Part shown: one piece after another, positions 8,086-28,739 of the stretch | Layout of the letters: the number at the start of each line of letters is the position of its first letter | How positions within the stretch are numbered: the first letter of the stretch is position 1 | Source of the DNA: Psychrobacter cryohalolentis K5 | GTDB lineage: Bacteria; Pseudomonadota; Gammaproteobacteria; Pseudomonadales; Moraxellaceae | NCBI RefSeq assembly: GCF_000013905.1 | Contig: NC_007969.1 | Location: 1,980,001 to 2,012,000 of the forward strand | Length of the DNA: 32,000 nucleotides | Direction of reading: 5' to 3' | Made by a program: the position numbers and the translations under genes | The notes under the pieces: model-generated | Databases searched by the model: none | What the model was told of the DNA's origin: nothing | What the model saw: only the letters and a program-made list of their open reading frames with translations

Positions 8086-8239
8086 TTCAGTCTTTCTATT
8101 CACTCCAACCTTTATATATACAGTCTCTATAATCTTCTTAAAACATATTTACTGGAAAAATAAAGACCATTCATTAATCTCTAGGGAGACACTTAAGTAA
8201 TTGTTTTATATAGATATTTAATGATAAAAATTCCATTAA

Positions 8240-8268
8240 TAGTCTTTTTTAATGAAAAGACTATTTTT
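8240..8268 (+). terminator. Rho-independent terminator after the Hjc-like gene
   Basis: tagtctttt-ttaatg-aaaagacta forms a 9-bp stem followed by ttttt. Confidence 0.6.
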
Positions 8269-10026: not shown

Positions 10027-10037
10027 GGGGTTAGATT

Positions 10038-10559: not shown

Positions 10560-10585
10560 CCGTCTCACTTTTAAGTAAGACGGTT
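10558..10585. terminator. Hairpin between the convergent Toprim-like gene and alpA (possible bidirectional terminator)
   Basis: aaccgtct-cacttttaagta-agacggtt, flanked by an A-run on the left. Confidence 0.5.
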
Positions 10586-10595
10586 CACTTAATAA

Positions 10596-10847
10596 CTAAG
10601 CTGATCTTGCTTCAATTTTTTCATTAATCCACTCTGCAATCTCACTTGCTACCCAAGCTACCCTCACTTGTGTCAGTTGCACCTTTTTAGGGAACGTTGG
10701 ATCATATTGAGCAGAATTTACATCGGCCATTGCATAGATAGTCGAGCGGCTGATACCTGTATATTCTTTAACGGCTTTGAGGCTAAGTAGCTGAGGAATA
10801 TGGTTGCATTGCTCAATAAATGGTTGTGCTATATTTAAGTTTTCCAT
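10596..10847 (-). CDS. alpA: AlpA-family HTH regulator/excisionase
   Basis: 83 aa. LSLKAVKEYTGISRSTIYAMAD...FPKKVQLTQVRVAWVASEIAEWI has the typical Phage_AlpA pattern. Confidence 0.85.
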   Translation of the reverse strand: MENLNIAQPFIEQCNHIPQLLSLKAVKEYTGISRSTIYAMADVNSAQYDPTFPKKVQLTQVRVAWVASEIAEWINEKIEARSA

Positions 10848-10957
10848 GATTATCTCCTTGTGAGTGAATGAGAGCGTCTGTTCTCATACAGTTACGGAGT
10901 CCCATATTTATTTACGGCGTCCTATGCTGTCCTAACGCTTCCCTTATTTAAAGCAAT

Positions 10958-10985
10958 AAAAAAAAGAGCTGGATCATCCAGCTCC
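10958..10985 (-). terminator. Rho-independent terminator downstream of the 11016 gene
   Basis: The minus strand has gagctgga-tga-tccagctc followed by tttttttt. Confidence 0.7.
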
Positions 10986-11015
10986 CTCTTATGTTGCATA
11001 TGAGCTTTAACCACT

Positions 11016-11927
11016 TCAGCTCACAACAGTCACGCTCTGCCGTAGACCTTGTTCAATGCTATTCACGTTATGAGTTACTAACCCATTCTGATAGCTACCC
11101 TGCTGATTGCTACTGACGTCATCTGTCTCAACTGGATAAAACTCTTCAGCGACTTCTGCTAGATCATCAGCATCAATCTCAAAGCATGAATTCACATAGC
11201 CTTGTCTTGCAGCCTGCTCTAATGCAGCCTGATCAAAGCCGTGTTCACTAAGCTCTGCATCTATCGCTTGCGCATCCTGCACCGCTTGCTTAAGTGTCAC
11301 ACCATCACGCAAGGTTAAATCCACAAAGTAAATTGGGGTGCGATAGCTTTGTGTCGTGCTTTTGCCTCTCAAGGTTAATTGCAGTGGCAAGCATGAAAGC
11401 TTATTACCGGATACTGCTGCAAAGTAGCTGAGCCTTGCTGCTAGTGTGCGAATACTATTAAAGCCAGTTGTCCGAAAGATGAATGTGCCCAGCTCATCGT
11501 CCTCAGAGAGATTGGCGTACAGTCTGCCATACGGCTTACAAGCACCGCCTTGCGCCAGTGGACAGCGATCAGGCGATGGGCAGGGATGGCTTTCAACGCC
11601 TTTACTGGTGCGCCGCTGACACTGCTCACCGTCACCGACGCATAGTGGGCGTCCGGTCTGTCTATCAAATAGCGTGTACTCAGCTCGTAGATTAAGCTCA
11701 GGATCGTTAAACAGCATGCGAACTGGTATTTGCCGCAGCTTGCCTTCATTATTTGCGCGTAGCTTTTCATCGAGTGGATGATTGATCCAGCCATCCTTGT
11801 TTTGAACTTGGCTGGTAATCGTAAATTGATCGTCTTTAGCAGGTAAGCGTTTGCCATCTTTTACAATGACACGCCCAATGCTGATACGACCTAAAACTGG
11901 CGGGGTAATAGTGAGACCTTTAATCAT
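11016..11927 (-). CDS. Conserved island protein with a Cys-rich putative metal-binding centre (often annotated 'hydrolase or metal-binding protein')
   Basis: I chose the start at the ATG at 11927 (MIKGLTITPPVLGRISIGR), 7 nt after AAGGAA. The longer track ORF would overlap the terminator of the upstream gene. The Cys cluster reads CVGDGEQCQRR...HPCPSPDRCPLAQGGACKPYGRL. Confidence 0.65.
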   Translation of the reverse strand: MIKGLTITPPVLGRISIGRVIVKDGKRLPAKDDQFTITSQVQNKDGWINHPLDEKLRANNEGKLRQIPVRMLFNDPELNLRAEYTLFDRQTGRPLCVGDGEQCQRRTSKGVESHPCPSPDRCPLAQGGACKPYGRLYANLSEDDELGTFIFRTTGFNSIRTLAARLSYFAAVSGNKLSCLPLQLTLRGKSTTQSYRTPIYFVDLTLRDGVTLKQAVQDAQAIDAELSEHGFDQAALEQAARQGYVNSCFEIDADDLAEVAEEFYPVETDDVSSNQQGSYQNGLVTHNVNSIEQGLRQSVTVVS

Positions 11928-11960
11928 GGTGATATTCCTTTTGTGTTTTATTTTAGCCAT

Positions 11961-11987
11961 AAAAAAGCCCACCTGTGATAGGTGGGC
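11961..11987 (-). terminator. Rho-independent terminator after the YqaJ gene
   Basis: The minus strand has gcccacct-atcac-aggtgggc followed by tttttt. Confidence 0.7.
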
Positions 11988-12051
11988 GGTTATGCGCGTA
12001 TTTGATTGAGTGGATTAATTTATGGATTATGATTGATGACGGATTATTGGC

Positions 12052-13292: not shown

Positions 13293-14285
13293 TTAGGCCA
13301 GCATCAGTAGCGATTCCTCTAAGCCCTTTTGCTTAAGCTTAGCGCCAGAGCCAAACCAAGCGCCATCTAATCGATGGTCTCTAGACATCGCCCTACGTTC
13401 ATGATCAACGTACTCCGTAATGCTGCACAGCAAACCGTAAGCCGTATCACGAGCGGCGTCGAGTGTGGCACCGCGTCCTTGACCGTTAAACATCTGCATC
13501 ACTTGATTCATCGCTTTAGCATTAGGCACAGCGTCTTTCTCTTTCTTAGCACGGTTAAATAAAATGATGTCATTGTCCTGATCATTGAATACACGGCTAA
13601 GATAATTGGCTGCTTCTGCTTGGGTGACACGGCGCTCTGATAGCTGCTTCATCTCATAAGCGTGCTCATCCCATTGTTTGACGGATACACCTAATTGCTG
13701 CTTAACCTTATCGGCATCAAAGGAGGTGGAATGCGGTACTTTCACCATGCCGCCATTGCCGTTGGCAAGGCTGATCGCTAGAGTGTTATTACAGACCACA
13801 CGAATAGAGGTGAACTGAGCAGTAGTCGCTAACGTCCCATCACAAGCCGTTGCCAGCAAGAGATAGCCATTACTGACATCTTTACCTTTAAGCGTTGCTG
13901 ACTGGCCTGTACGTGCTAATGCCCATAGCTTACGCCCGCCCTTTAGAACACCTGCGGTCTCAAGCTCAAAGTCCGATTGCTCGGTAAGATCACGATAGAA
14001 TTCTAAAATCTCACGCGGCTGTACTTCCTGATAGCGCTGGCTAACAACAGATAACGGCTCAAAGTTATCGCTACGGTACAACACCTTTTGCTCAGCAAAG
14101 GGCAGAATCAGATTGTGCCCTTTATCATTACTAGCCATGTAGCTGACGTCCGATGATTCAATACGCCAGTCCATACCTGCTTGCTTTGCCCAGATCTCGA
14201 TAGGCTGCTTGGGAGCCAGCTCGTTTCCAAGACCGTGCCAGGGCGTGTCACCGACGTAGGCAATTGATTCTAATAAATGTGCCAT
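13293..14285 (-). CDS. DUF932 (phage/plasmid-like protein, TIGR03299-type)
   Basis: 330 aa. The N-terminus MAHLLESIAYVGDTPWHGLGNEL and overall length are typical of DUF932 proteins of integrative elements. Confidence 0.8.
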   Translation of the reverse strand: MAHLLESIAYVGDTPWHGLGNELAPKQPIEIWAKQAGMDWRIESSDVSYMASNDKGHNLILPFAEQKVLYRSDNFEPLSVVSQRYQEVQPREILEFYRDLTEQSDFELETAGVLKGGRKLWALARTGQSATLKGKDVSNGYLLLATACDGTLATTAQFTSIRVVCNNTLAISLANGNGGMVKVPHSTSFDADKVKQQLGVSVKQWDEHAYEMKQLSERRVTQAEAANYLSRVFNDQDNDIILFNRAKKEKDAVPNAKAMNQVMQMFNGQGRGATLDAARDTAYGLLCSITEYVDHERRAMSRDHRLDGAWFGSGAKLKQKGLEESLLMLA

Positions 14286-14335
14286 TATAATTTTTCCTTT
14301 TAGATTTGATTATGAGTATTGGTTATAGGGGTGCT

Positions 14336-14626
14336 TTAGATGGTGAAGGTTCTTGAGCAGGTATTGCAGGTATAACTAGGCTTTACTGCCAAAACGAGTA
14401 AGGGTGGCTGCTGTAGCTTGTCTTTAGCCAAGCTGATTGCAGAAGCAAGCGCCGTGCCTACGACCACACCGATTGCTGAATTGATTTTGTAGTACCTACA
14501 GATGCTTACACCAAGACCTGATAGGGCAGATTGTGAGCACAGTTGCTCGAAGATATTAAAGGGGCTGTCAGTATCCGTATTGCTTTTTACGTTCGCTGAA
14601 TGACAGTGTGGGCAGATCGGTCTCAT
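14336..14626 (-). CDS. Small hypothetical protein with a split zinc ribbon (CPHC...CNTC) and a central hydrophobic segment
   Basis: 96-aa ORF with CxxC pairs at both ends and the hydrophobic stretch AIGVVVGTALASAISLA in the middle. Confidence 0.5.
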   Translation of the reverse strand: MRPICPHCHSANVKSNTDTDSPFNIFEQLCSQSALSGLGVSICRYYKINSAIGVVVGTALASAISLAKDKLQQPPLLVLAVKPSYTCNTCSRTFTI

Positions 14627-14652
14627 AAATTGCTCCTTTTTCGATTGCGCAT

Positions 14653-14681
14653 AAAAAAGGCCTGCAATTAAGCAGACCTTT
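14653..14681 (-). terminator. Rho-independent terminator after the Gp2/YfjJ-like gene
   Basis: The minus-strand RNA folds as AAAGGUCUGC-UUAAUU-GCAGGCCUUU, with one U-G wobble, followed by UUUU. Confidence 0.65.
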
Positions 14682-14760
14682 GATTAGGATGAATTAGGGT
14701 TAAACAGACAGGTAAGCTAGGCTTCATGTCTTATCTCATAGGGATAGTATATACCTGAGA

Positions 14761-15675
14761 TTATTTTACTATGGGCGGTAGTCCGCGACGTTTAGAGGTT
14801 CTATAAATACCATGACCAAAGGTGCGCATGTTTGGTAGCCACAGTTTAAGTTGCTGCTCATCTTTACTTGGCTTAGTTAAATATAAAGCTGAAGCTATAG
14901 CGTTTTCGACTTCCTGAGGGTTATCACGATGAATCATGCCGATACCTAATTTGCCGTATTGTTGGTACTTCTGCTTACGCTCTGGATCGTGGTAGTTATA
15001 GTACTCACCTAAACCCGCTGTAATCATTTTCCATTTTTCACCAATCTCTTTAGCTAGATACCAGTCATTGTCCCTTTTCGAGCCATCGAACATCAACAGT
15101 AAATGACAGTGTAATCCACCGTTCACTCCTCCTTGCTCAACTGCCCAAGCATTGCCATGCAAATGCTCAAAGCAAGTTTTCTTATTACCGATAAGCTCCC
15201 GTAGCTTATTCATGTGATCATCAAAGTTCTCGATAGATACATGGTGGCTCGTCTGCTGTGCGTATTTTAAATCGATACGCACAAATAGTAGTCTTGAGTA
15301 GTGAGTAGTGAGATTACCTACGTAATTCGCTAAATTATTTCTATTTTGCGACTCCTGATAGCTAAACGTAATGCGTTCACGCTCAATATCATTTCTATAG
15401 CAGGATAACGTAGCGATAAACCGCTGGGTTTTATCATGATCCCAGACGACGTCAATTGGATATGATTCACCAACTATAGCGTTGGTGCTATATACAAATG
15501 CGACAACCGGCTGTGAATAAAATAGCTCAGTATTGAAGTGTGTCATGAACGGATAATACAATCCGTTCAGTTGAGTTTTGACATCATCAAAGCTTATGGT
15601 ATTTGCCAATATGGCTGTGACCAGATTATGGACATTAGCAACAACTTGAGGTTGGTTGAAGTTTGAATACGGCAT
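14761..15675 (-). CDS. Inovirus Gp2-type / YagK-YfjJ family protein
   Basis: 304 aa. LLFVRIDLKY, GGLHCHLLLMFDG and the C-terminal LYLTKPSK region match the YfjJ/YagK family seen in CP4-like islands. Confidence 0.78.
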   Translation of the reverse strand: MPYSNFNQPQVVANVHNLVTAILANTISFDDVKTQLNGLYYPFMTHFNTELFYSQPVVAFVYSTNAIVGESYPIDVVWDHDKTQRFIATLSCYRNDIERERITFSYQESQNRNNLANYVGNLTTHYSRLLFVRIDLKYAQQTSHHVSIENFDDHMNKLRELIGNKKTCFEHLHGNAWAVEQGGVNGGLHCHLLLMFDGSKRDNDWYLAKEIGEKWKMITAGLGEYYNYHDPERKQKYQQYGKLGIGMIHRDNPQEVENAIASALYLTKPSKDEQQLKLWLPNMRTFGHGIYRTSKRRGLPPIVK

Positions 15676-15739
15676 GATTGTGATCCTATTAAGTTAATGT
15701 TCATAGGGTCAGGTCAGTCCGTATTTTTATAATGTTGGC

Positions 15740-15762
15740 TGCTGAGAGGTCAGCTCTCAGCA
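15740..15762. promoter_or_regulatory. 9-bp inverted repeat upstream of the Gp2/YfjJ-like gene (possible operator)
   Basis: tgctgagag-gtcag-ctctcagca. No T-run follows on either strand. Confidence 0.35.
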
Positions 15763-15997
15763 TTAGAATAAAGCACCTAGTATATTCAATAATATAAATA
15801 ACCCACTAAGCATGAGCTGCTGTAGTGCAGCTATTTTCCAACTAGCATTGGAGAATGACGTAAGGACTAATTGGAAATTGCCTTATGCTACAAGCCGATG
15901 GTTTGAATGGAGTTAGCATTTTTAGATATGTAACATTTTAGGTATGTTTTATAAGCTCAAGCTCTTATTCTGTGGTAGGATACCTTGAGAATACAAT

Positions 15998-16030
15998 ACG
16001 TTTTAATAACGTTTTAATAACGTTTTAATT
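15998..16030. repeat. Three perfect-to-near-perfect tandem 11-bp repeats (ACGTTTTAATA x2, ACGTTTTAATT)
   Basis: Read directly from the sequence, 53-85 bp upstream of the ATG at 16083. Confidence 0.9.
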
Positions 16031-16082
16031 GCCATTTTTTAGTTAACTAAAGTCTGGTTTTTATTATTTTGGAGATAGAAAG

Positions 16083-17681
16083 ATGAGTGAAGCTGAGGCT
16101 CGAACTGAAGTTAAGCGGTTAAATCGGACTCAAAAAAATGCAGAATATATCGAAAAGAAGATCAATAGTCTTAGTTTTTATAGCGCCTATTGGTGTTTAT
16201 TTGAATTGCGATCTTTATATGCACTCTCTGAAAAACAGATTTTAAGAGACGACACTCGCGTTAAATCAAAGTTAATTCATATCTTAAAAAAGGCAAACTG
16301 TAACCCTAAAAAATTGGATGAAATCTTACAGACGAGCGCTGACGAAAGCATACCTCTATCCTACGTCAGATGGTTTTATGAAGACGACAGAGCGGCTTTA
16401 TGGATAAATATGGTTTTGAAAAAATATAATGCAGCGAGCGATTATATACAAACAAAATCAGACATTGCGATTTTTGCCCATAACCTTATTTTCAATTCAA
16501 ATATTCGTATTTCAGGAAGAGAAATTCATATAGGGTCTGATTCTTACAACGACGCTTTAGTACTGAATAAAAAACAAGTTTTAGGTTTTTTAGAACAAGC
16601 TTACGTTCGTAGTAAAGTTGGCTTAGGGAAAACAAAATGGATGGATAGTCGCAATGATATTCAGGTTAATCATTTATACCAGTATATGCAAAAACCCTGC
16701 GAACTTATTAAGCTAAACGTTGTTACGTTCAGTCCTAGCCAAGCTTTGATTTGTGCTGATACTATTGCTATAAAAGAATCAGATAGGGTTAGTAGGCTTA
16801 ACCATATGCTGGCTTCACTAGATTATTGGATGTTTGATACTTATTGGTTTAATGAAGATGGTGTCGTGCTAGGCAAGGACAATAACAGAAGTAAGTTTCT
16901 AGAGATGATGAAGAATGTCTCCAATTCAAAAGCTAACCGTATTAACGATAAAAATATAAAGAAAAAAGGCTTAGTACTTACCAGTGCAAACAAGAAAACC
17001 CTCAGTCTGATTGCTAAAAGACAAGGTAAAACTCGAGCGCAAATGCTTAACGATATCGTTGCCAGCTACAACCAAACTTTTTTCTCCGAAGTACCTAAAA
17101 CCACTAGAGCTACTGGTGCTTATATAACGGGCGACTATGGAAAACCATATACAGACACATTTGAAACGCAGCAAAGCCTAAAAGCTAAACAGGCTAGCTC
17201 TGAGACTATGTTAGTAGATAGTGATAGCGAGGAGAATACAGAAGATGTTCCTGGCACTGATATATTAGAACCAGCAACAGGCATTGAACGTAAAAACCGC
17301 AAGTGTGTTGAATATGCTGAGATTGATGAATGCGTTAAGAACGATGAGCAAATCGAGAATGACAAGCAAGTCAAAAATGCTAAACCAAAGGATTTCGATA
17401 ATCGATGTAAAAACTTAGAAGACGCTGATAATAGTGCTACTGGCAAATTAACAGATGAACTCATTCTTGCTATCACTCCAAGCAAAAACATTGATACACC
17501 TGTAGACATCTCTACAATTGAAACTGTACAGCCTGTGACTAGCTCACATGATACTGAACATATTTCAGCTTCAGATGAGAATCTTCACAACATTGATGAT
17601 AAAATATATGATGACGATCCTTTTTTGATAAACGCCAGGCTTATAAGCAAAAGGCTGGAAGAACATAAGCAAACCAATTAG
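16083..17681 (+). CDS. Hypothetical 532-aa protein with an acidic, low-complexity C-terminal third
   Basis: Long ORF preceded by GGAGATAGAAAG. The internal segment KKTLSLIAKRQGKTRAQMLNDIVASY looks ribbon-helix-helix-like. I recognise no family. Confidence 0.7.
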   Translation: MSEAEARTEVKRLNRTQKNAEYIEKKINSLSFYSAYWCLFELRSLYALSEKQILRDDTRVKSKLIHILKKANCNPKKLDEILQTSADESIPLSYVRWFYEDDRAALWINMVLKKYNAASDYIQTKSDIAIFAHNLIFNSNIRISGREIHIGSDSYNDALVLNKKQVLGFLEQAYVRSKVGLGKTKWMDSRNDIQVNHLYQYMQKPCELIKLNVVTFSPSQALICADTIAIKESDRVSRLNHMLASLDYWMFDTYWFNEDGVVLGKDNNRSKFLEMMKNVSNSKANRINDKNIKKKGLVLTSANKKTLSLIAKRQGKTRAQMLNDIVASYNQTFFSEVPKTTRATGAYITGDYGKPYTDTFETQQSLKAKQASSETMLVDSDSEENTEDVPGTDILEPATGIERKNRKCVEYAEIDECVKNDEQIENDKQVKNAKPKDFDNRCKNLEDADNSATGKLTDELILAITPSKNIDTPVDISTIETVQPVTSSHDTEHISASDENLHNIDDKIYDDDPFLINARLISKRLEEHKQTN

Positions 17682-17880: not shown

Positions 17881-18239
17881 TATTGTATATCATTAACTTT
17901 CTGTAGCTACCTCTTACCTCTACTATCAGCAGATTATGCTGTAATTCTAATGAGAAATTCAGGCATAAAAGTCAACAAGCGCTTTAATACTATCTTATTC
18001 TCTATCGTTACGTGTTCTATGAATAGACATAGATTATATCCTCTAAATTATTAATCGATTGAAATAGCATCACTTTATTTATTTAGAAAGTACTAGCTAA
18101 TGATAGCCGTTAGATAACACAAAGCCTTATTCAACCTGCTTGTTTCATACAAGTTTTTTAGCTACAGTTAAAATTCCTATATTAAATAATGACGATGAAC
18201 CGTCAAATAAAAACAATCTTTCATAAGCTGGAGTACATT

Positions 18240-18749
18240 ATGGAGCTAAAGCTGAATGAGCTCTCCGATAAAAACAATTTAAATAGTCATCATGGCGAGC
18301 ATATTATCCTGCGTCTAACTTATGTTAGCCGCTATAACACCGAAAATTCAAATATCGAAGTAGCACGTATTCTTGAGCAGGCGCAGCGTAATAATGAGCG
18401 CAATGGTATTACTGGTGCATTAGTAATTAATGAAAACTATTTTCTCCAAGTTATTGAGGGCGCAAGACCAGTTATTAACAATCTGTTAAAAAAATTGATT
18501 GAGGATAAGCGACATTTTTCTTTGCAAATTATTGAGTGCCGTGAAATTGAGGAACGGTATTGGAATAAATGGTCAATGAAATATTTAACGGCTAATGATC
18601 AGAATAAAGAATATGTTATGAAATATTCAGCCAGCAATGAATTCAACCCTTACCTAATGAGTACTTCTCAAATTACAATGTTTATAGACAAGTTATCAAA
18701 ACTTCAAGAACGACAAGAAAAACGCGAGTCTAAGATGAAAAAATCTTAG
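18240..18749 (+). CDS. BLUF-domain blue-light photoreceptor (short, BlsA-like architecture)
   Basis: LRLTYVSRY...NNERNGITGALVINENYFLQVIEGARPVINNLLKKLIEDKRH...WNKWSM carries the conserved Y, Q and W/M positions of BLUF. I chose the start at ATG 18240, 7 nt after GGAG; the track start is 18189. Confidence 0.85.
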   Translation: MELKLNELSDKNNLNSHHGEHIILRLTYVSRYNTENSNIEVARILEQAQRNNERNGITGALVINENYFLQVIEGARPVINNLLKKLIEDKRHFSLQIIECREIEERYWNKWSMKYLTANDQNKEYVMKYSASNEFNPYLMSTSQITMFIDKLSKLQERQEKRESKMKKS

Positions 18750-18820: not shown

Positions 18821-18923
18821 CTATATAAGACGCTATACCCCTATATACCTGAAAAACGCCCAAAATAAAGGGCTAACAGTCTATGACGGTCAGCCCTTTA
18901 TCGTTGTTTGGTGGAGATGGCGG
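18821..18923. repeat. Distal direct repeat (att-type) copying the last 15 nt of tmRNA, its terminator and ~40 further bp
   Basis: Aligns with 28198-28310. There are perfect blocks of 53 bp (18850-18902) and 19 bp (18905-18923), four substitutions and one 10-bp indel. Identity stops exactly where the tmRNA body continues in the other copy. Confidence 0.92.
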
Positions 18924-19235
18924 AAACTAAACTATAAATATAAGTCATTGATAATAAACGTTATTAATTATTTTAAAATAGACGATACCAACCATAATAC
19001 CAACAATCGTTTTTTATTTTACTGTTATTCAGTGCCTACCCTATCAACTAAAGATTATTTTGTAATTATTTACCGTTTCAACATGCTAGGGCGGTGCTCT
19101 CTTACGATACCTGTGCATAAAGTCACTTTAACTTTTTAACATGGCTTTAACCTACTAATGATCGCTACAATTCATACGCCTACGTTACTTGTCGCAAAAG
19201 TCGCTTTAACTTCTTTTTGAAACGGTTTTTTTCTT

Positions 19236-19585
19236 GTGCGTGTGAATGGTGGCGGTGTCCTCTGTCGATACGCTCAGCACTCAAAATACTACCCCCCTCA
19301 CTTGTCCGTAAATTACCCCTTTTATGGACTCCAAGTATTATCTTGGCTGCTCTCTAAGATGTCCGAAAACTAGCCAGCATTGGCATAAGCTGCACCTGTG
19401 CGCGTACTGTGCCCATAACTCTAACGTGTGTAATAACCTCCCTCGTACTTGTTAAGAAACTACCCCTTTTATGGACTCCAAGAACCCCCGTCATTGGTGC
19501 TTGCTTCGCGCGTGTGCGTACTGTTCCATAAAGTCATTTTTGACCCTGCTTATGATGTCCGAAAATTACCCCTTTTTATGGACTC
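19236..19585. repeat. Three degenerate ~105-150-bp tandem units, each with a GTGCG-TACTGT-CCATAA box and a GTCCGTAAA-N7-TTTATGGAC palindrome
   Basis: Palindrome boxes lie at 19303-19335, 19450-19482 and 19556-19585, with partial copies at 19360-19372, 19921-19934 and 19991-20017. GTGCG boxes lie at 19236-19260, 19398-19418 and 19513-19533. Confidence 0.8.
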
Positions 19586-19650
19586 GCAAAATTGGATAAC
19601 CCCAAGACTGGGGGCATCTATTCCAGCGTTTAGCGGTGTGTGACTTGGTT

Positions 19651-19915
19651 TTCAATGTAAGGTTTTATAAGGTTTGCGATATGTGGTTTTCTAACGTTTC
19701 AATGTGAGGTTTTATGAGGTTCTACTATGTGAGGGTTCAGGTTTTCTCAGGTTCTCAATGTTAAGTTTTATTAAGTCGGTACTGTCTGCCAATGTTAACA
19801 AATGACAACATGCAAATTGGTTTTGAATGTACGGTTTTGACATGTTATAGACCACAAGTTTTGACAGGTTCATTACTTCGTGTTTTCATTTTGAATGTTG
19901 GGTTTTGTTAGGTTC
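19651..19915. repeat. Array of ~9 degenerate 21-28-bp iteron-like units, consensus TT(C/G)AATGT-NNNG-GTTTT-R-NNNG-GTT
   Basis: Units lie at 19651-19675, 19698-19722, 19727-19754, 19754-19777, 19789-19812, 19823-19846, 19851-19871 and 19891-19915. A further copy is at 20200-20226 and an inverted partial copy at 20161-20180. Confidence 0.8.
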
Positions 19916-20287
19916 TACGATGTCCAAAAACCTAGGGGAAACCTTAGTTTCTTTACACTATAAAAAGGGCTTGGTAGTGATCGCCTAACGTGTCCGAAAA
20001 CTAACCCTTTGTATGGTCAATACGTCCAAAAGTGGACTTATCTATTTTGTTTGACGGCTCTATCCTGTTTTGGTGGCATCATGGCACTGTAGGCTAACGC
20101 TTACCCCATTGGGGGTTATGCAATCGGTAAAACGTGGTAAAAAGAATTATGCTTTTAAACCTTAACATTTATTAACATGCTGGCAGTCGGCAAACTGGTT
20201 TGAATGTTAACTTTTGACAACATGCAGACCGTGAGTATCGAGCGCAAAACCTTAGGGTTTCCTTAGGGTATCTTTACACTATAAAAA

Positions 20288-20331: not shown

Positions 20332-23067
20332 TTATGAATAATCTACTTCACTGCCAAACGGTGGTATTTCATTATCAGGATCAATTACACCCTGTTTTGT
20401 TGTACCTTGCTTTTTAGTGGCGGACAAGGCGGACAAGGGGACATCGCCCGTGATTACTGGGTTTGCAGCTGTCCCCCGTGTTTTTGGGTAGGCGGACAAG
20501 GCGGACAATTCATCTACTTGTGGCTCACTGTGTCCGCTGTGTCCGCGTGTGTCCCTTTGGCTGTGGACAGCCTCTAGCCCTTGATCTATATGGTGTGTCC
20601 GCTGTGTCCGCGCTGTCCCTGTGCTTTTATCAGTTTCATAACTTAGTATGTCGCTTTTGATGGCATAAACACGCGTACGGGCTTTGGGGTTCTTTGCTGT
20701 TGGTGCTGGGACTCTAAACGTCTTTTTGTTGGTTTCATTGGTAATTAGCAGACTAGCATCATCTAATACTTGCGTTACTTTTTTAAGCTCATACGGTGTG
20801 CACACCTCTTTTTCAAACGCATTAATATAAAAATAGTAATCATCGCTGCCTTGCTTACGATAGCCAACACGGTTAGTAACTTTCTGCTCACTATCAGCAT
20901 AAAAAGACTTCTCACATGGTTGAAAGCGACTACTACCATGCAATTCAATAAATGCTTGAATATGTTTAATGATTTGGCGCTGCTCATGCTCACCATCACG
21001 CCCATAGTTATCAAGCCAATTATCTAAGCATGTCATAACGGCTGTGGTCGCTTGTCGTGCTTGCCAGCCCGTAATGTCTGCACCTGTTGCCATCTCACCA
21101 GCCGCGGCAACAATAGCGAACCGTTTAGCCACTCTATGCGCTTGCGGTGCTAGCTGTGGGTAATGGCTCATAAAGTCACTTACAAGCTGCTTGGCGGTGG
21201 CTGTGGTCGCTGCTTTGTCATTGGTGATATATTCCAGCCATGCTATGCCAGCTGATCCATAGTAAGTGTGTGATAACTCCTTGATCTTATCGGCTTGTGC
21301 TGCGCCTGTGTCTGCCAGTACCAAACTATCAAACGTCTTTAAACCTTGACCAGCATCAGCATCTATATGTGCTACTCGAACCTCAATACCTGCATTCGTT
21401 TTCTGTCCTGCTTGTGCCATAAAGTTTTGTAGCGACTCCTCACCATTAGATAAGAAAATAATGCGCCATGTCTTAGCAGTGCGATTATGTCCTGTGGTGG
21501 TGCTTCTACCTTTGCCTTTGCCATTAGCCAACATGTAAACGCTGTTACCTACTATCCGTGGATCACATTCGCTGATTTCATCAAGCGGTAAGAAACTATC
21601 GTTATGCTCGCTGGCTGTGCCCTCTAAGGCGTTATCAGTGCTGCGCCATGTCTTAGTATAGCTGTCAGGCTTGCCCCATACGCTAGACGCTGTTTTAAGT
21701 GATAATGACTTGCCCATGCTTGATGATCCTAAAAGGTGAAAGCCACCCCCATCATCATCTAACAGCTCTAACAATTGACCAGCAAACGCGCAAGCAATAG
21801 AGAAAACAAAACGGCTTTGATCTGCTAGTTTTTTGCATAGTTCATCACGCCATTGGGCTAATGTACCTTGCTGGGCTATGGTGCTATTGATTGCATGGGC
21901 AGACTGATAGACTATTAACTGCTTGCCATCGCCGCCTATTGCGCTGTCAGGTAATATATATTGCCCGTCATGCCAGCCTAGCTTATCCACGCATAACGCC
22001 CGTTTATGAATAGGATAGTCCTGAATATAGGTGTCTAAGTAATTGCGCTTTTTGCCGTTGGTGGTAATGTTCAATCCTTGACTGGCTAGCTCTCTACGAT
22101 ACTCACGGGCATCACCTTGTAGCAGTGATAACGGCATTGACCACGTATGTAGCACGCTATCATCATCACGCCATTGTAATAGCCGCCCCCATGTACCGCT
22201 GCTTGTGTCCCGTGTCTTTGCGATAACCTCAATCGGTGAACAAACAAAAGCCTTAAACTTAAAGGTTATGTTTGCTGGATCGTCATCGTTATACTTCACA
22301 AAAAACAGTCCATCATGGTATAGCTCAAAACGCCCATCACCATAAATCATCGGTTCATTCAGCTGTGAATCATCGCGCCATTCAGGATAGTAAGCAGTGT
22401 CTTTTAAACTTATTAGCTGGGTGTCATCAGCTGCCAGTATTGCCTCATAGCTATGATTGGCATGTAGCATCGTGACAATATCAGCCACAGTAAGCAATGC
22501 CCTAGCATTCACACCTGCCAATAGATTTATCATGCCTTTGTTATCTATAGTCATTGGTACGGTTAGCAGTGATCCGCTACTCCAATGCTGCACCATCTTT
22601 TTAAAGCATTGCTTTGTCTTTTGAGGGCTAATAATAAAGGTTGTTTTGTCGTCTGCCATACACTGATAGGCATCAATGCCATATTCTGCTTCATCAAAAG
22701 CGATTATCTCATTGCCTTTGTTTACCTCACCAATGACGATAGCGCCATACCCTGTAGGATCAATAACAATGGGCTTTGCTTTGCTGTTTGGTGTGTAGAA
22801 TACCGCGCCTACAATATCGCCTTGTTTGTCATGCAATCGTAGGGCTATCGTGCCAGCTGTCGGTACTACTGACGCGTCATTTGTAGTAAGATCATCAGTA
22901 ACGCTTAACAAGCTATTGGGCGGTAATAGCTCATGTAGTTTTATTAAAGTAGGATCGTCTGCCAGTCCTTGCCGTGTGACTGCATTAAAACTATTCATTA
23001 CCACTGTAAAGCCTGTGCTAAATGCACGGGCTTTTTCATGGGTGGTGGTTTGTGGTGTGGTGGTCAT
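20332..23067 (-). CDS. Primase-helicase (Toprim-like N-domain + DUF927 + P-loop NTPase)
   Basis: 911 aa. The DUF927-type stretch reads WGRLLQWRDDDSVLHTWSMP...ALCVDKLGWHDGQYILPDSAIGG, and the Walker A is LLGSSSMGKSLSLKTAS. The C-terminal ~110 aa are low-complexity and encoded by DNA repeats. Confidence 0.88.
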   Translation of the reverse strand: MTTTPQTTTHEKARAFSTGFTVVMNSFNAVTRQGLADDPTLIKLHELLPPNSLLSVTDDLTTNDASVVPTAGTIALRLHDKQGDIVGAVFYTPNSKAKPIVIDPTGYGAIVIGEVNKGNEIIAFDEAEYGIDAYQCMADDKTTFIISPQKTKQCFKKMVQHWSSGSLLTVPMTIDNKGMINLLAGVNARALLTVADIVTMLHANHSYEAILAADDTQLISLKDTAYYPEWRDDSQLNEPMIYGDGRFELYHDGLFFVKYNDDDPANITFKFKAFVCSPIEVIAKTRDTSSGTWGRLLQWRDDDSVLHTWSMPLSLLQGDAREYRRELASQGLNITTNGKKRNYLDTYIQDYPIHKRALCVDKLGWHDGQYILPDSAIGGDGKQLIVYQSAHAINSTIAQQGTLAQWRDELCKKLADQSRFVFSIACAFAGQLLELLDDDGGGFHLLGSSSMGKSLSLKTASSVWGKPDSYTKTWRSTDNALEGTASEHNDSFLPLDEISECDPRIVGNSVYMLANGKGKGRSTTTGHNRTAKTWRIIFLSNGEESLQNFMAQAGQKTNAGIEVRVAHIDADAGQGLKTFDSLVLADTGAAQADKIKELSHTYYGSAGIAWLEYITNDKAATTATAKQLVSDFMSHYPQLAPQAHRVAKRFAIVAAAGEMATGADITGWQARQATTAVMTCLDNWLDNYGRDGEHEQRQIIKHIQAFIELHGSSRFQPCEKSFYADSEQKVTNRVGYRKQGSDDYYFYINAFEKEVCTPYELKKVTQVLDDASLLITNETNKKTFRVPAPTAKNPKARTRVYAIKSDILSYETDKSTGTARTQRTHHIDQGLEAVHSQRDTRGHSGHSEPQVDELSALSAYPKTRGTAANPVITGDVPLSALSATKKQGTTKQGVIDPDNEIPPFGSEVDYS
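20419..20619. repeat. Cluster of ~10 GTCCG-core octamers (4 as GGCGGACAA, then 6 as TGTGTCCGC/GTGTCCC) inside the 3' end of the primase-helicase gene
   Basis: ggcggacaaggcggacaagggga at 20419-20441, ggcggacaaggcggacaa at 20491-20508, tgtgtccgctgtgtccgcgtgtgtccc at 20529-20555 and gtgtgtccgctgtgtccgcgctgtccc at 20593-20619. The two orientations face each other. Confidence 0.85.
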
Positions 23068-24832: not shown

Positions 24833-25083
24833 GATTGCACCCCTTTGCTGTCGTTATTGTTATCTGTTGGCTGGTCTATCCAGTACTCTTTGAACGTCTT
24901 ACCATTGCGTTTGATGGTCTTATCTTGAATAACCACGCCTTGCGCTCTTAGCTCGCTGATCCGCTGTAAAAAGCATGTTATTTGCCATAGATCAAAGGCT
25001 TCATAAGTGGATAGGCTGTTACCTGCCAGCATGTGATTATGGATAATCTGCTTATAGCTTTTTTTGGGTTGCCGTGTGTTCAT
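24829..25083 (-). CDS. Winged-helix/HTH protein (HTH_39-like)
   Basis: GNSLSTYEAFDLWQITCFLQRISELRAQGVVIQ resembles the small helix-turn-helix family that reads xLTxxEAxxxxGIxRLAARIxELRxxGxxI. Confidence 0.6.
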   Translation of the reverse strand: MNTRQPKKSYKQIIHNHMLAGNSLSTYEAFDLWQITCFLQRISELRAQGVVIQDKTIKRNGKTFKEYWIDQPTDNNNDSKGVQS

Positions 25084-25086
25084 GAT

Positions 25087-25377
25087 CTACACCTCGCTAG
25101 TGGTTGAGGTGTGAGAATTAAGCCATTCGTGAATGTCTGCATAGCTCCATGCGGTCATTGTAGGGCTTAACTTCTTGCCAGCTGGGAAACGTCCATCTTT
25201 TGACCATTCAAAAAGGGTGGTTTTGCTAAAGGGTAGGAACGGCAAAATGTCCTTTGCTCTGCCCATGCCAGTAGTAGGCAGTTGCATAGCTGGACTGTTT
25301 GCGTTGGTTGGTTCGGTATCGTGAGGGGTGTTATCAGTAAAAGGAATTACTGGGGTGTTTTGGGTTGGGTGTGTCAT
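25087..25377 (-). CDS. alpA: AlpA-family HTH regulator/excisionase with an N-terminal extension
   Basis: ILPFLPFSKTTLFEWSKDGRFPAGKKLSPTMTAWSYADIHEWL has the Phage_AlpA pattern. I chose the ATG at 25377, 7 nt after GGAG; the track ORF starts at a GTG at 25392. Confidence 0.8.
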   Translation of the reverse strand: MTHPTQNTPVIPFTDNTPHDTEPTNANSPAMQLPTTGMGRAKDILPFLPFSKTTLFEWSKDGRFPAGKKLSPTMTAWSYADIHEWLNSHTSTTSEV

Positions 25378-25432
25378 TGTGTGTAGCTCCACTAAATGAC
25401 GCTACGGTATGTAACGTCCAGTGGTTCTACTT

Positions 25433-25511
25433 TAGGGGGTAGGGTTATTTGCAGCACCCTAGCTGGGGTGAAGTCACGCCCTAAATGGGGTATGAGTTTA
25501 TTTTGGGGTGG
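25433..25511. promoter_or_regulatory. G4/C4-box repeats upstream of the satellite alpA operon (candidate operators)
   Basis: tagggggtagggt at 25433-25445, ccctagctggggtg at 25457-25470 (near-palindrome CACCCtAGCTgGGGTG), ccctaaatggggta at 25479-25492 and ttggggtgg at 25503-25511. Confidence 0.4.
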
Positions 25512-25529
25512 TGTCTAATCATGGTTATA

Positions 25530-26768
25530 TTATTTCTTTTTTGCATCACTCAAAATAGAATTAGCATCACTAAAGCGAGTTTCTAAAGTGCTTTTACCTT
25601 GTCCGTATATTCCTTTATCTGTAATTTCACTAATAATGACTGCTTGGCTTGAAAATGGTTGTTTATGGTCAATTCCTTTAGGCGTGACCATCAATTCTAA
25701 TAATAAGCCTATGGTAGTCTGATAGCTTTTTTCGGTACGTTCACTCAATTGTTGATAGTCATCAGCTGGCTTGTCTGCCAGTGCTGCATTAGCTTGTGCT
25801 AATTGGTTCTCAAGGTCTGATATTTTGGCGTTTGCTGCTGTTAATCTTTTAATAATTTGCTCATTATTCGGGGGTTCAGTTTGCGTTACTGTGGGCGCTG
25901 GTATCTTGTCGGTATCGTTTGGCAGATTGTCATTAAAACCCCTAATAATGAAGTTGTAACGAGCAAGCCATAATTTTACTTGTTCAGCTGGTATCTGTTC
26001 TTTATCGTTAATAGGATTTAATGCTTTTGCCTCTATTGCGTTGCTTACCATATCTTTGTAAGCGTTATATTTATCATCATTATGGCTATATGCTGGGTTA
26101 TCGTTAGATAATAAGCAAGTGACTTGGTGGGGAGTGAATAGAACATAACTAATAAGCAGTCTTTGGCTGCCAGTCGGCTCTATTAGGTCATTTCTTGCAT
26201 TCATGTCCGCTGTAACACTATCTCTTATTGTTTTAGCAGCATTCATATAAAATTCAAACTCATTTTGTGCGTTATCGTATGATTTTTTGACGTTAAATAA
26301 ATTGATTAACTCATTTCTTGAAAAACGCACCTCATCAAAATCAATATTTGAATATTTAAGGTCATCGAGCTTATCAACTTCTCCAATAGGGGGATTTTTA
26401 AACAAAAAAACTTCATCAAAAACACTATATGCCTTACTTTGCTGTTTAATAATTTTCTGAATAGTAAAAGGCGAATGTATTTCTATCCATTCGGGCACGT
26501 CAGCATCACCAAATGTTGAGTAACTCTCATAATTCCTAGTTTGGTGCATAAAAAAATCATCATGTGTGAAATAGGCTTTCATTTTGTCATAACGAATTGT
26601 TTTATAATTAATATCAGGATAGCTAACGTAACCACTGAACAAAAATACTGGGGTAAGCTTTTCAATATTGCTTAATTCCTCAAGGGTTGAACCATCTATT
26701 TTTTCGCCCGTTAATTCAAAAACAAAGTCAATGGCTTGCCGTATAGATAGATATTCTTGCACTAACAT
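25530..26768 (-). CDS. Hypothetical 412-aa protein, visibly more AT-rich than its neighbours (island cargo)
   Basis: Long ORF between int and alpA. It has a coiled-coil-like segment (IIKRLTAANAKISDLENQLAQANAALADK). I recognise no family. Confidence 0.75.
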   Translation of the reverse strand: MLVQEYLSIRQAIDFVFELTGEKIDGSTLEELSNIEKLTPVFLFSGYVSYPDINYKTIRYDKMKAYFTHDDFFMHQTRNYESYSTFGDADVPEWIEIHSPFTIQKIIKQQSKAYSVFDEVFLFKNPPIGEVDKLDDLKYSNIDFDEVRFSRNELINLFNVKKSYDNAQNEFEFYMNAAKTIRDSVTADMNARNDLIEPTGSQRLLISYVLFTPHQVTCLLSNDNPAYSHNDDKYNAYKDMVSNAIEAKALNPINDKEQIPAEQVKLWLARYNFIIRGFNDNLPNDTDKIPAPTVTQTEPPNNEQIIKRLTAANAKISDLENQLAQANAALADKPADDYQQLSERTEKSYQTTIGLLLELMVTPKGIDHKQPFSSQAVIISEITDKGIYGQGKSTLETRFSDANSILSDAKKK

Positions 26769-26890
26769 AACTCACACCTTTACACACCCTTAATTCAAAG
26801 TAGGTGCAAGGCAGTGCCAGCCTAAAGGTGTGTGAACGGCTGGCTTTCGGGTAATTAGTCCTAGCCTTGCATAGTCGTTACAGCATGATA

Positions 26891-28132
26891 TTAGCCATGC
26901 TTTTGTTTTTGTTGTCTAAAGTTGGTATGTATGACGTTATCCAATTTGCCAGCATAAGCATCATCAATAAAGTTTGCCCATTGGTGCATCATGTCTATTC
27001 TATATGGCAAGTGCTGCGCCCCGTTGTAGGCTGCGCTGATCTTGTTTTCTCTATCATGTGCCAGCTGTAGCTCTATGGCTTCGTGCATAAACTCTTTTTC
27101 ATGTAGTGTGGTACTGGCAAGCCCTCTAAACCCGTGCCCCGTCATCTTGCCTTTATAACCCATATTCCATAGGGCATTAATAAACGCGCTTTGACTGTAT
27201 GGCTTACGAGTTGAGGTATTAAAGAAAACGTACTGATCGGAAAAACCTAGCTCTTTGATCTGTTCCAGTATCGCCATTGCTTGCGGTGCTAATGGCACAA
27301 TATGCAAACGCTTGGCTTTCATCTTATCGGCTGGTATGCGCCATAAGCCATGTTTGTAGTCAATCTCCGACCACTCCATGAAGCGGATCTCATTAGTACG
27401 CACAAACGTATAGCATAAAAACCATAAGCCTAGTTTCACCAGTACATCACCTTGATAAGCATTGATGTCTGTTAGTAGCTTTGGCAGTTGCTGGCTAGTA
27501 ATACGGTGGTGGTTGGTCGTTTTGTGTGGTTTGATTGCTTCGGCTAGGTCGGTGGCTGGGTTATGTGTGGCTAGTCCATTGCGGATAGCGTGCTTAAATA
27601 TCTGTCCTACTTCTCTAATGGTACGCCTTGCCATTTCATTAGCACCACGGCTTTCTACTGCTTTGCCAATAGCTAATATATCAGGCGCGGTTATGTCGTT
27701 GATGTTCTTTTGACCAATAGAGGGCTTAACATCGCGCATATAGGCGGAATAGTTACGAGTAAAGGTGCTTTCTGCTAGGTAGGTTTTGCGTTCTGCATAC
27801 CATGACTGGGCTATGTTATCGAAAATATTTAAACCGTCTTGGCTGGCTTGCTGCTCTTTTTTATGATCTTTGGGGTTCACACCATCAGCTATTAAGCGTT
27901 TGATCTCAATATTGCGCTGCCTTGCGTTCTGCAAGCTCATAACTGGATAAGTGCCAATAGTGAGGGTTTGCTGCTTACCTTGCCAGCGGTAGGCGCTGAT
28001 CCATGACTTAACGCCCGTGTAACGAACCCATAATTGCAGCCCGTTACCATCACTATGTTTATCAGGTCGCTTTGTATCAATCGAGGTGCTACTGGGCTGT
28101 AGCTTATTGATAACGGTATGAGTTAAGGGCAT
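26891..28132 (-). CDS. int: Tyrosine recombinase, P4-type integrase (DUF4102 arm-binding N-domain + catalytic domain)
   Basis: GLQLWVRYTGVKSWISAYRWQGKQQTLTIGTYPVMSLQNAR is DUF4102-like. The C-terminal HGFRGLASTTLHE...LAHD...AYN region carries the R..H.xR..Y catalytic pattern. The gene lies adjacent to the tmRNA. Confidence 0.93.
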   Translation of the reverse strand: MPLTHTVINKLQPSSTSIDTKRPDKHSDGNGLQLWVRYTGVKSWISAYRWQGKQQTLTIGTYPVMSLQNARQRNIEIKRLIADGVNPKDHKKEQQASQDGLNIFDNIAQSWYAERKTYLAESTFTRNYSAYMRDVKPSIGQKNINDITAPDILAIGKAVESRGANEMARRTIREVGQIFKHAIRNGLATHNPATDLAEAIKPHKTTNHHRITSQQLPKLLTDINAYQGDVLVKLGLWFLCYTFVRTNEIRFMEWSEIDYKHGLWRIPADKMKAKRLHIVPLAPQAMAILEQIKELGFSDQYVFFNTSTRKPYSQSAFINALWNMGYKGKMTGHGFRGLASTTLHEKEFMHEAIELQLAHDRENKISAAYNGAQHLPYRIDMMHQWANFIDDAYAGKLDNVIHTNFRQQKQKHG

Positions 28133-28144
28133 TGGACTATCCTT

Positions 28145-28195
28145 TGTTGGTATTGAGCATATGTATAAACTCTAATACCAACAATAATACCAACA
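28145..28195. repeat. AATACCAACA decamers (one inverted, two direct) between the int start and the att repeat; candidate integrase arm-type sites
   Basis: tgttggtatt at 28145-28154, taataccaaca at 28173-28183 and ataataccaaca at 28184-28195. Matching copies gataccaacc (18984-18993) and ataataccaaca (18994-19005) lie at the opposite island end. Confidence 0.5.
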
Positions 28196-28197
28196 TT

Positions 28198-28310
28198 CTA
28201 TATAGGACGCTATACCCCTACATAACCCTCAATCCTTGAAAAACGCCCAAAATAAAGGGCTAACAGTCTATGACGGTCAGCCCTTTATCAATGTTTGGTG
28301 GAGATGGCGG
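28198..28310. repeat. tmRNA-proximal direct repeat (att-type), partner of 18821-18923
   Basis: See the alignment described for 18821-18923. Confidence 0.92.
28239..28286 (-). terminator. ssrA rho-independent terminator
   Basis: The minus-strand RNA forms AAAGGGCUGAC-CGUCAUAGACU-GUUAGCCCUUU, an 11-bp stem with one G-U, followed by AUUUUGGGCGUUUUU. Confidence 0.7.
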
Positions 28311-28654
28311 GAGTTGAACCCGCGTCCGCCAGCATTACGCTCATGAATCTACATGTTTAGTTTCTGTCTTTGGTTTTAGTCCGCACCGATCCGACAGTCA
28401 GGATGGATAGGACGATTCTCTACTTTTAAACCCAAGCAATTGAGACAATCACTTGTGGCGCTTCTACATGCGGACGCTTCAACTTAGTTGACCAACTGTA
28501 GATGATCAGCAACCAAGTAAACAGGGTTTAAGCTGCTAGAGCGTAATTTTCGTCGTTTGCGACTATAACAATATATGTTTGATTAACGAGAGGACATATA
28601 CTCTCGACATGCATCATTGAGTTTCATCACCAGCGTCGAAGCCAGAACATCCCC
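28296..28654 (-). ncRNA. ssrA: tmRNA (transfer-messenger RNA)
   Basis: The minus strand starts GGGGATGTTCTGGCTTCGACG and ends GGGTTCAACTCCCGCCATCTCCACCA. The internal tag frame GCAAACGACGAAAATTACGCTCTAGCAGCTTAA encodes ANDENYALAA* (28528-28560). Confidence 0.95.
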
Positions 28655-28667
28655 AATAAGGTCGATG

Positions 28668-28697
28668 ATTATATAGCATATATACGGCTGCTTGCAA
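28668..28697 (-). promoter_or_regulatory. Sigma70-like promoter for ssrA
   Basis: The minus strand has TTGCAA-N18-TATAAT (or N16-TATATA) ending about 13 nt before the mature 5' GGGG. Confidence 0.5.
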
Positions 28698-28739
28698 CCT
28701 ATTAGAGCTCTGTATTACATTACGTTACAGCTTAATCAT

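Follow-up and report, generated by a model that had tools for sequence, protein, structure and literature searches.

What is the function of an AT-rich gene of no recognised family that stands, in one island after another, between an integrase gene and alpA? The question arises in a 32,000-nucleotide stretch of Psychrobacter cryohalolentis K5 (NC_007969.1, positions 1,980,001 to 2,012,000; the whole stretch is called the window), which carries a 9.4-kb island at the transfer-messenger RNA (tmRNA) gene. The gene, referred to as X, lies between the tyrosine integrase gene int and alpA. The original prediction regarded it as a satellite-borne accessory or immunity gene, plausibly a single-gene abortive-infection or helper-interference function. 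The analysis reported here gives a slightly better than even chance to another role, in which X would be the specificity-determining regulator of the alpA operon and a functional analogue of Stl or cI.

25530 to 26768, minus strand: gene X, encoding a 412-residue mosaic protein, called from its ATG-start open reading frame (ORF) and its homologues, GC content 0.349

X is essentially identical to a 'hypothetical protein' of Psychrobacter cibarius (100% in one search, 411 of 412 residues by BLASTP). Homologues number 117 in a set of 5.8 billion proteins, and an exhaustive HMMER search of 1.84 billion cluster representatives returned 154 relatives; X is therefore a real, conserved gene. Its GC content is lower than that of int (0.447), alpA (0.478), the primase gene (0.452) and the whole island (0.427), and it is flanked by intergenic DNA of its own, 122 nt upstream (26769-26890) and about 150 nt downstream (25378-25529). 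Searches of Pfam, PADLOC, PHROGs, NCBIfam and PDB sequences gave no significant match, and no enzymatic, transmembrane or known defence domain was detected with Pfam and PADLOC. The original prediction had already described an AT-rich gene of 412 residues with separate intergenic regions and no recognised family, and these features are borne out, as are the nested inverted repeats upstream of X (26773-26870) and the coiled coil followed by a C-terminal domain, the latter being supported by an AlphaFold2 model.

The occupancy of the slot was examined by scanning the GTDB species genomes with the integrase, which gave 68 Psychrobacter loci (designated by L numbers), and int and alpA are both present in 55 of them. 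In all 55 the gap from int to alpA is occupied and starts with a co-directional ORF; its length is 1040-7561 bp and its GC content 0.31-0.44 (at most 0.39 except with large cargo), as compared to 0.40-0.49 for the adjacent int. The first gene after int is nearly always co-directional and of similar size and composition, and in most islands it is a member of the mosaic family of X, to which 43 slot ORFs were linked by single-linkage BLAST. The int-X-alpA order is kept in L069, which has a different integrase and attachment site, in L077, which has a DUF3987 primase, and in L071, which has a different integrase, a different attachment site and a DUF3987 primase. Two decayed remnants that have lost int, L075 (3420-4682) and L079 (4001-5705), are located downstream of gatCAB and a tRNA gene; what remains in them is the leader, an intact X (310 or 458 residues, with differing N-termini) and the sites of class C1 described below, next to an alpA truncated to 57 residues. 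The slot is thus hypervariable in sequence and invariant in occupancy, and its constant filling in a kept gene order makes X a core gene by position.

The DNA between the stop codon of X and the -10 element of the alpA operon contains two operator-like palindromes.

25477 to 25492, minus strand: distal operator-like palindrome TACCCCATTTAGGGCG, conserved in every class C1 locus
25455 to 25470, minus strand: proximal operator-like palindrome CACCCCAGCTAGGGTG, with its centre near -40, about 28 nt upstream of the putative -10
25429 to 25434, minus strand: putative -10 element TAAAGT of the alpA operon, proposed from the intergenic alignment and missed by the promoter consensus scan, with TAAGAT, TAACAT or TATCAT at the equivalent position in relatives

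The motif CACCCCAnnTAGGGTG is found in the 32-kb window at these two places only, 0.14 occurrences being expected by chance. First slot proteins were clustered by their 80 C-terminal residues, and the non-coding DNA from the slot to alpA was then read for each cluster. These C-termini fall into more than 15 classes, and most classes with at least two members have their own repeated or dyad-symmetric motif before alpA.

Class C1 (window, L026, L071-L081): CACCCCAnnTAGGGTG twice, 22 bp apart
Class C0 (several loci): TTGCGAT / ATCGCAA / TTGCAAT repeats
Class C6 (L005, L006, L008): ATCTACTATAGAT twice
Class C9 (L010, L027): TTCTAGTTAGAA / TTCTAACTAGAA
Class C2a (L003, L023, L031): GCAGCGTAA..TTACGCTGC
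Class C2b (L009, L013, L024): ATGCATGCAT repeats
Class C12 (L028, L033): CCCCTAAACA..TGTTTAGGGG
Class C14 (L055): GGTATAT..ATATACC
Class C14 (L057): GCATATGAC..GTCATATG

Pairs of loci from one class share a longest common substring of median 15.5 nt in the strictly non-coding region, as compared to 7 nt for pairs from different classes (Mann-Whitney p 1.6e-28, with pairs that are non-independent). The median is also 7 nt for the 216 locus pairs in which alpA is at least 85% identical and the X class is different.

Individual loci separate the C-terminus of X from the other island proteins. The C-terminal module and operator of the window occur in L026, yet with an unrelated N-terminus and an HTH_39 protein of 38% identity, and a C-terminus and sites of the same class occur in L071 alongside an unrelated integrase, alpA and primase. 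L009 and L012 have HTH_39 proteins 89-90% identical to that of the window and different operators, while L029 shares the N-terminal and middle modules of the window and an AlpA of 96% identity, but has another C-terminus and other sites. Int is 91-98% identical across many X classes. Among the loci compared, the putative sites track X only, and not AlpA, Int or the HTH_39 protein. The dyad symmetry of the C1 sites is maintained through changes on both arms (ACCCCAAATGGGGT in L075 and L079, ACCTCAGTTGAGGT in L071), and where the aligned C-terminal modules of C1 read GQGKSTLETRF, those of C0 read LSKSNIEKIF or a similar sequence, a difference that accompanies the difference in sites. Paired, phased and class-specific dyad sites imply a class-specific dimeric DNA-binding protein, and since no island protein other than X varies with the sites, X is read as the regulator of the alpA operon.

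The architecture of the protein was interpreted from homologue alignments and AlphaFold2 models, and four parts are distinguished.

26199 to 26768, minus strand: N-terminal variable module or modules, residues 1-190, GC content 0.318, the proposed input or sensor part
25899 to 26186, minus strand: middle domain, residues 195-290, compact and helical, the most widely shared module
25776 to 25865, minus strand: coiled-coil helix of the AlphaFold2 model, residues 302-331, the presumed dimerisation element and a frequent recombination junction
25533 to 25739, minus strand: C-terminal module of class C1, residues 344-412, delimited by alignments, the proposed DNA-recognition domain

The full-length model, built from a 58-sequence alignment, has a mean predicted local distance difference test score (pLDDT) of 68, and a separate model of residues 292-412 (121 residues) reaches 81.5. 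The N-terminal part is poorly defined (low pLDDT), with a beta-alpha-alpha-beta-beta prediction for residues 6-68. A compact helical domain is modelled with confidence at residues 200-285 (pLDDT 88-96); it is the best-matched stretch in most distant homologues. It is followed by the 30-residue helix 302-331, which shows a heptad pattern, and by a C-terminal module of three helices (346-361, 375-385 and 392-411), whose consensus in class C1 is SYxTTIGLLLELM...PFxSQAxII..I...IYGQGKSTLExRFxxAN.

The mosaic family of X comprises about 150-250 proteins, which belong to Psychrobacter wherever the source names the organism. Homologues match differing parts of X, namely residues 1-163 or 1-190, 190-290, about 300-412, or combinations of these; the N-terminal module is common to P0029-P0048 and others, with which the rest of X is not shared. 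The alignment ends cluster at residues 160-190, 280-315 and 320-345, which are the low-confidence linkers of the AlphaFold2 model, and X is accordingly a modular protein whose parts recombine where domains meet. A scan of viral contigs gave nothing with X, and with the C-terminal profile it gave a single island (L081), located at an IMG/VR contig end, which contributed no further information. L024 contains a second X homologue (20586-21239, 69% identical to window residues 1-221) about 3.3 kb past the primase of the first island, which indicates two islands in tandem at one site. In five genomes that have two islands each, the islands carry different X classes.

Foldseek against PDB and BFVD returned no match at E <= 0.001 for the full-length or the C-terminal model and none for the middle domain, and a profile of the C-terminal module gave nothing against PDB sequences. 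The top Foldseek matches, to JetA, the small terminase TerS and FinO/RocC, were non-significant and were not used. Pfam analysis of 82 family members and 20 other slot proteins yielded only coiled-coil noise and weak ribbon-helix-helix or HTH_17 matches, the former including NikA-like matches (4.5e-4, three members) and DUF6290 (2.5e-5, one member).

Taken together, these features suggest how X may act. X would be made together with int in the integrated state, would dimerise via the coiled coil 302-331 and, as the co-variation implies, would bind TACCCCATTTAGGGCG and CACCCCAGCTAGGGTG through its C-terminal three-helix module, thereby controlling alpA and the downstream excision and replication genes. 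By analogy with Stl from the pathogenicity islands of Staphylococcus aureus (SaPIs) and with phage cI, it would repress the island until a signal reaches the exchangeable N-terminal modules, possibly in the form of a phage protein. Diversified regulator/operator specificities and expression in the quiescent state are traits of immunity repressors such as cI and Stl. Repression is favoured because X shows many specificities and is likely to be co-expressed with int in the quiescent state, and on this analogy a repressor is the most likely role. No promoter-like site was found between int and X by a consensus scan, and the two genes are probably co-transcribed. The comparisons show the position of X, its mosaic architecture, the class-specific operator-like palindromes and the lack of any other island protein that follows them; we infer the binding to DNA, the sign of regulation, the sensing of phage and the co-transcription with int. 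X and its putative sites would then constitute a cassette that resembles an immunity region and is unrelated to Stl or cI in sequence.

Several observations weigh against X being a repressor, or a regulator at all. X is co-directional with its proposed target operon, unlike Stl. The slot proteins of classes C2, C7, C12 and C13 have no detectable sequence similarity to X; they match it in position, size range and AT-richness, and a palindromic or repeated motif of its own precedes alpA in each of C2, C7 and C12, with no obvious one in C13. No DNA-binding fold or family was recognised in X by Pfam, NCBIfam, PDB-profile or Foldseek searches, with Foldseek E-values of no less than 0.04 (full model) and 2.5 (C-terminal model). 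The distance from the sites to the end of the C-terminal coding sequence is about 30-110 nt, and physical linkage therefore accounts for part of the association. Class C6 was considered as a linkage-free test, as X is separated by 0.6-6.5 kb from alpA in these islands (L005, L006, L008); the operator pair occurs twice in them, one copy just behind X and the other in front of alpA with the cargo in between, and its duplication next to X weakens the test, which was downgraded. Finally, the alpA promoter has no good -35, and in C1, C6 and C9 the centre of the proximal site is near -40, at 27-28 nt from the putative -10 on its upstream side, a position that fits an activator equally well.

The lack of a good -35 and this position make activation a serious alternative, though we consider it unlikely. 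X would then bind the same sites (about -40 and about -62) as an activator of the class II/I type and turn on a weak alpA promoter upon an N-terminal signal. No -35 is recognisable; furthermore, in Gram-negative phage-inducible chromosomal islands (PICIs) the helper phage turns alpA on by a route that is not known, and there is no known repressor (PMC6092414). However, the sites are centred elsewhere in C2a, C2b and C14, the combination of many regulator/operator specificities and co-expression with int is typical of immunity repressors, and the positive autoregulation by AlpA in PICIs would account for the weak -35 (PMC6092414).

That X is instead an accessory anti-phage or helper-interference gene, acting as a single-gene abortive-infection system and varying in an arms race with phages, appears improbable. 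The gene is hypervariable, AT-rich and adjoins int; an intact X is retained in decayed islands that lack int, which could mean a benefit to the host; and a defence candidate and other cargo occur in the same gap of relatives. The RelA/SpoT-domain protein encoded between int and X in L017 (4435-5490) is a PADLOC candidate, PDC-S33 (3.7e-120), and this slot, where it sits beside X, is the sole one with such a candidate. Other cargo lies between X and alpA: a tape-measure-like protein of 1278 residues in L016 (13280-17116; TMP_3, 6.8e-58), and a Phage_lysozyme2-like, tail-lysozyme-like protein with unknowns of 533-741 residues in L008 (12533-18507) and L006 (12726-14951). Tail-type proteins are odd as cargo of an island without other virion genes. 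On the other hand, X matches no defence family and has neither an enzymatic nor a membrane domain, the slot is filled in every island, its first gene belongs mostly to one mosaic family rather than to assorted defence systems, and the class-specific paired palindromes at the alpA promoter would be left unexplained. The int-alpA region is a minor cargo site, and X itself is probably not cargo. At the primase-distal island end, L069 carries an MmeI-family restriction-type gene (14169-16955) and L071 an SRA-HNH gene with a type I R subunit (7631-12034), and the main defence cargo site of the island family may be located there rather than beside int. In C6 the operator pair also precedes the inserted cargo genes, which fits a small regulon and supports the regulator reading; the arrangement suggests that these genes sit behind a second X-type operator and that cargo cassettes could have been inserted by duplication or recombination at the operator/promoter region.

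The original prediction proposed to ask whether the slot varies between conserved flanks, and it does so, the slot being hypervariable and int and alpA conserved. It named an invariant slot together with a gene of the conserved island core as one outcome that would speak against accessory cargo; occupancy is indeed invariant (55/55) and the sequence is not. The proposed accessory or immunity function is accordingly upheld as regards a hypervariable slot with cargo in a few relatives, and is not upheld as regards X, which is always present, belongs to one mosaic family and co-varies with the sites. The constant occupancy, the single family, the absence of a defence domain and the co-variation of the sites make X most likely a regulator and not a single-gene abortive-infection system, and a defensive side-role is compatible with the intact X of the decayed islands.

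A low probability is also assigned to the view that the association of motif and C-terminus is hitch-hiking of adjacent DNA, the palindromes being bound by something else or by nothing and X having an unrelated function. The operator is contiguous with the C-terminal coding end, the 'separated' case of C6 has a duplicated copy beside X, and the DNA-binding fold is unrecognised; against this, paired and phased dyad sites that differ among many classes, with compensatory changes on two arms, imply a class-specific dimeric binder, and no other island protein varies with the sites. A site-specific DNA-binding protein with a non-transcriptional task, such as TerS-like packaging or a KfrA/ParB-like accessory role in partition or replication with the palindromes as cis site, is very improbable: small helical domains with a coiled coil do resemble TerS and KfrA in outline, a small terminase and FinO/RocC are among the non-significant Foldseek matches (E = 2.5-4.7), and satellites often encode their own TerS (PMC6092414), but Pfam finds no terminase, KfrA or ParB match in X or the 102 other members scanned, the sites are immediately upstream of a promoter-like -10 and in C6 also upstream of cargo genes, candidate replication iterons lie elsewhere (19303-20011), and a hypervariable packaging specificity has no obvious rationale.

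The expression of X may be limited at the level of translation, as the leader between int and X suggests.

26769 to 26890, minus strand: conserved int-X leader with nested hairpins
25398 to 25418, minus strand: hairpin GACGTTAC..GTAGCGTC in the alpA 5' leader

The int-X leader contains an outer repeat (GCAAGGC, 26870-26864, with GCCTTGC, 26812-26806) and an inner repeat (GCCAGCC, 26844-26838, with GGCTGGC, 26822-26816), the loop of which, CACACCTTTA (26832-26823), is complementary to TAAAGGTGTG (26782-26773), overlapping the ribosome-binding site of X. Conservation of the 122-nt leader extends as far as the start codon of X in 48 loci; it spans all island types, those with other integrases and an int-less remnant included. 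The inner stem varies in a compensatory manner (GCCAGCC/GGCTGGC and GACAGC/GCTGTC), and matched variants of loop and ribosome-binding site occur in L001-type loci, L016, L071 and L054: CACACCCTTA with TAGGGGTGTG, ACACCCTCA with TGAGGGTGT in L016, and CGCACCC with GGGTGCG in L071. Rfam covariance models applied to 25000-28700 found nothing in the int-X leader, tmRNA alone reaching the gathering score. The minimum free energy of the leader is no better than that of shuffled sequence (z = 0.13) and the comparison of self with cross complementarity between loop and ribosome-binding site is weak (11.1 as compared to 10.3 nt), so that the case for the pairing comes from a few compensatory variants. 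These suggest that the leader may be an RNA element limiting the translation of X. The hairpin of the alpA leader is replaced elsewhere by GCCGTAG..TTACGGC or ATCGCAG..CTGCGAT, the stem being kept by two-sided changes.

The remaining features of the island provide the context of the cassette.

28222 to 28319, no strand assigned: island end at the tmRNA 3' end, a 98-nt direct repeat, 89% identical to its partner at 18835-18932, which gives an island of about 9.4 kb
18835 to 18932, no strand assigned: distal attachment (att) repeat copy, with the displaced tmRNA 3' end and terminator
26891 to 28132, minus strand: tyrosine integrase with Arm-DNA-bind_3, Phage_int_M and Phage_integrase domains (Pfam)
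25087 to 25377, minus strand: alpA (Phage_AlpA, Pfam 5e-07), first gene of the operon proposed to be under X control

The tmRNA gene occupies 28296-28654 on the minus strand, and all island genes are on the same strand: int, X, alpA, the HTH_39 protein gene, four small ORFs and the gene of a 911-residue DUF927 primase. The true start of alpA is most likely the ATG at 25377 (MTHPTQ..., with GGAG upstream) and not the GTG at 25392 of the mechanical ORF call; alignment shows this ATG and the GGAG Shine-Dalgarno sequence to be kept in 28 loci. No packaging or capsid gene was seen in the island (ORF list, Pfam, PHROGs), for which reason it is regarded as a candidate phage satellite only. The 1.4-kb non-coding stretch from the primase to the distal att repeat contains four copies of TGTCCGAAAATTACCCCTTTT (19303-20011, 76-100% identical), which are candidate replication-origin iterons. 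Short tandem or direct repeats (GGCGGACAAGGCGGACAA, TGTGTCCGCTGTGTCCGCG) within the primase 3' end (20419-20621) encode a repetitive C-terminal tail. The perfect palindrome ACCCCCAATGGGGT downstream of the primase (about 20102-20115) was considered as a third X site and rejected, since islands of other X classes (L009, L028, L055) have it too; it is a conserved element of the islands with no relation to the specificity of X. Just outside the island are an AT-rich ORF of 532 residues (16083-17681, GC content about 0.33) without a Pfam or PADLOC match and a BLUF blue-light sensor protein (18189-18749).

A more ambitious form of the regulator reading is offered tentatively, as possible but not expected: X may be the missing master switch of AlpA-type satellite-like islands in a Gram-negative host, a phage-sensing repressor with plug-and-play modules (exchangeable N-terminal sensors, a coiled coil for dimerisation, and exchangeable DNA-recognition heads of new fold, each with an operator of its own), more than 15 immunity specificities that do not cross-react within a single genus, and cargo in its regulon. 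The regulator reading as such could explain how islands of this kind stay silent or switch on. In X, always present between int and alpA, there is a concrete and testable candidate for an island-encoded switch. The family also represents a natural library of putative modular regulator/operator pairs, with more than 15 specificities in an unannotated family without Pfam, PDB or Foldseek match, which would be useful for studying the recombination of DNA-binding specificity and input domains and possibly as a source of orthogonal parts. It further cautions that a variable AT-rich gene beside an integrase need not be defence cargo.

Comparison with known systems places the cassette among several regulators of mobile elements. 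Stl/Rpr of SaPIs and Gram-positive PICIs (PMC6092414; PMC6695447), like X, adjoins int, is highly divergent and modular between similar islands, and has separate DNA-binding and partner-binding parts, as proposed for X; both are proposed to act at sites before the excision/replication operon, and both escape family-based annotation. X differs from Stl in having no sequence or fold similarity to it, in its Gram-negative host (Moraxellaceae), in the C-terminal position of the putative DNA-binding part, and in not being divergent from the regulated operon, as int, X, alpA and the primase gene are all on the minus strand and in the same order in 55 loci. An XRE-type helix-turn-helix was also looked for: X has no Pfam or NCBIfam helix-turn-helix match, and the 20 other slot proteins gave one HTH_17 match at E = 0.02.

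The cI/Cro immunity regions of lambdoid phages resemble X in that a regulator and its cognate dyad operators are swapped as a unit between conserved flanks, the operators being paired, as are the X sites, about two helical turns apart. Unlike cI, X has no HTH_3 or Peptidase_S24 domain in Pfam and is a single regulator with no obvious Cro-like partner, and the element is a 9.4-kb int-alpA-primase island, not a phage.

Defence hot spots of P4-like satellites can be empty. They are likewise variable, AT-rich loci in a small integrative element, and a few relatives of the island carry a defence candidate (PDC-S33, in L017) or other cargo in the gap; such hot spots hold assorted unrelated systems (PMC13586616). 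In contrast, the X slot is never empty, its 43 linked ORFs belong to one mosaic family, and X has no PADLOC match. Plasmid-encoded KfrA, like X, is all-helical with a coiled coil and, as proposed for X, binds an inverted repeat near a promoter; its DNA-binding head is N-terminal. X differs from it in lacking a Pfam match to KfrA_N (PF11740), in its reversed domain order and in its genetic context. As for small terminases, X has no Pfam or PHROG match to them, and Foldseek gave E = 3.9 to G20c TerS.

The Gram-negative PICIs EcCICFT073 and EcCIMP1 have the same co-directional backbone of int, AlpA-family regulator and primase. In E. coli PICIs alpA directly follows int, and the helper phage induces the activator AlpA by a route that is not known; a repressor encoded by these islands is not known either (PMC6092414; PMC11773190). 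Unlike them, the Psychrobacter islands interpose an always-present gene with operator-like sites of its own. In the literature consulted, including that on virion-encapsidated integrative mobile elements (VEIMEs), Pseudomonas tmRNA islands and EcCIMP1, no description of a gene interposed like X was found. What is new here is an undescribed protein family that carries a proposed regulator/operator cassette, a type of cassette that is itself known from mobile elements.

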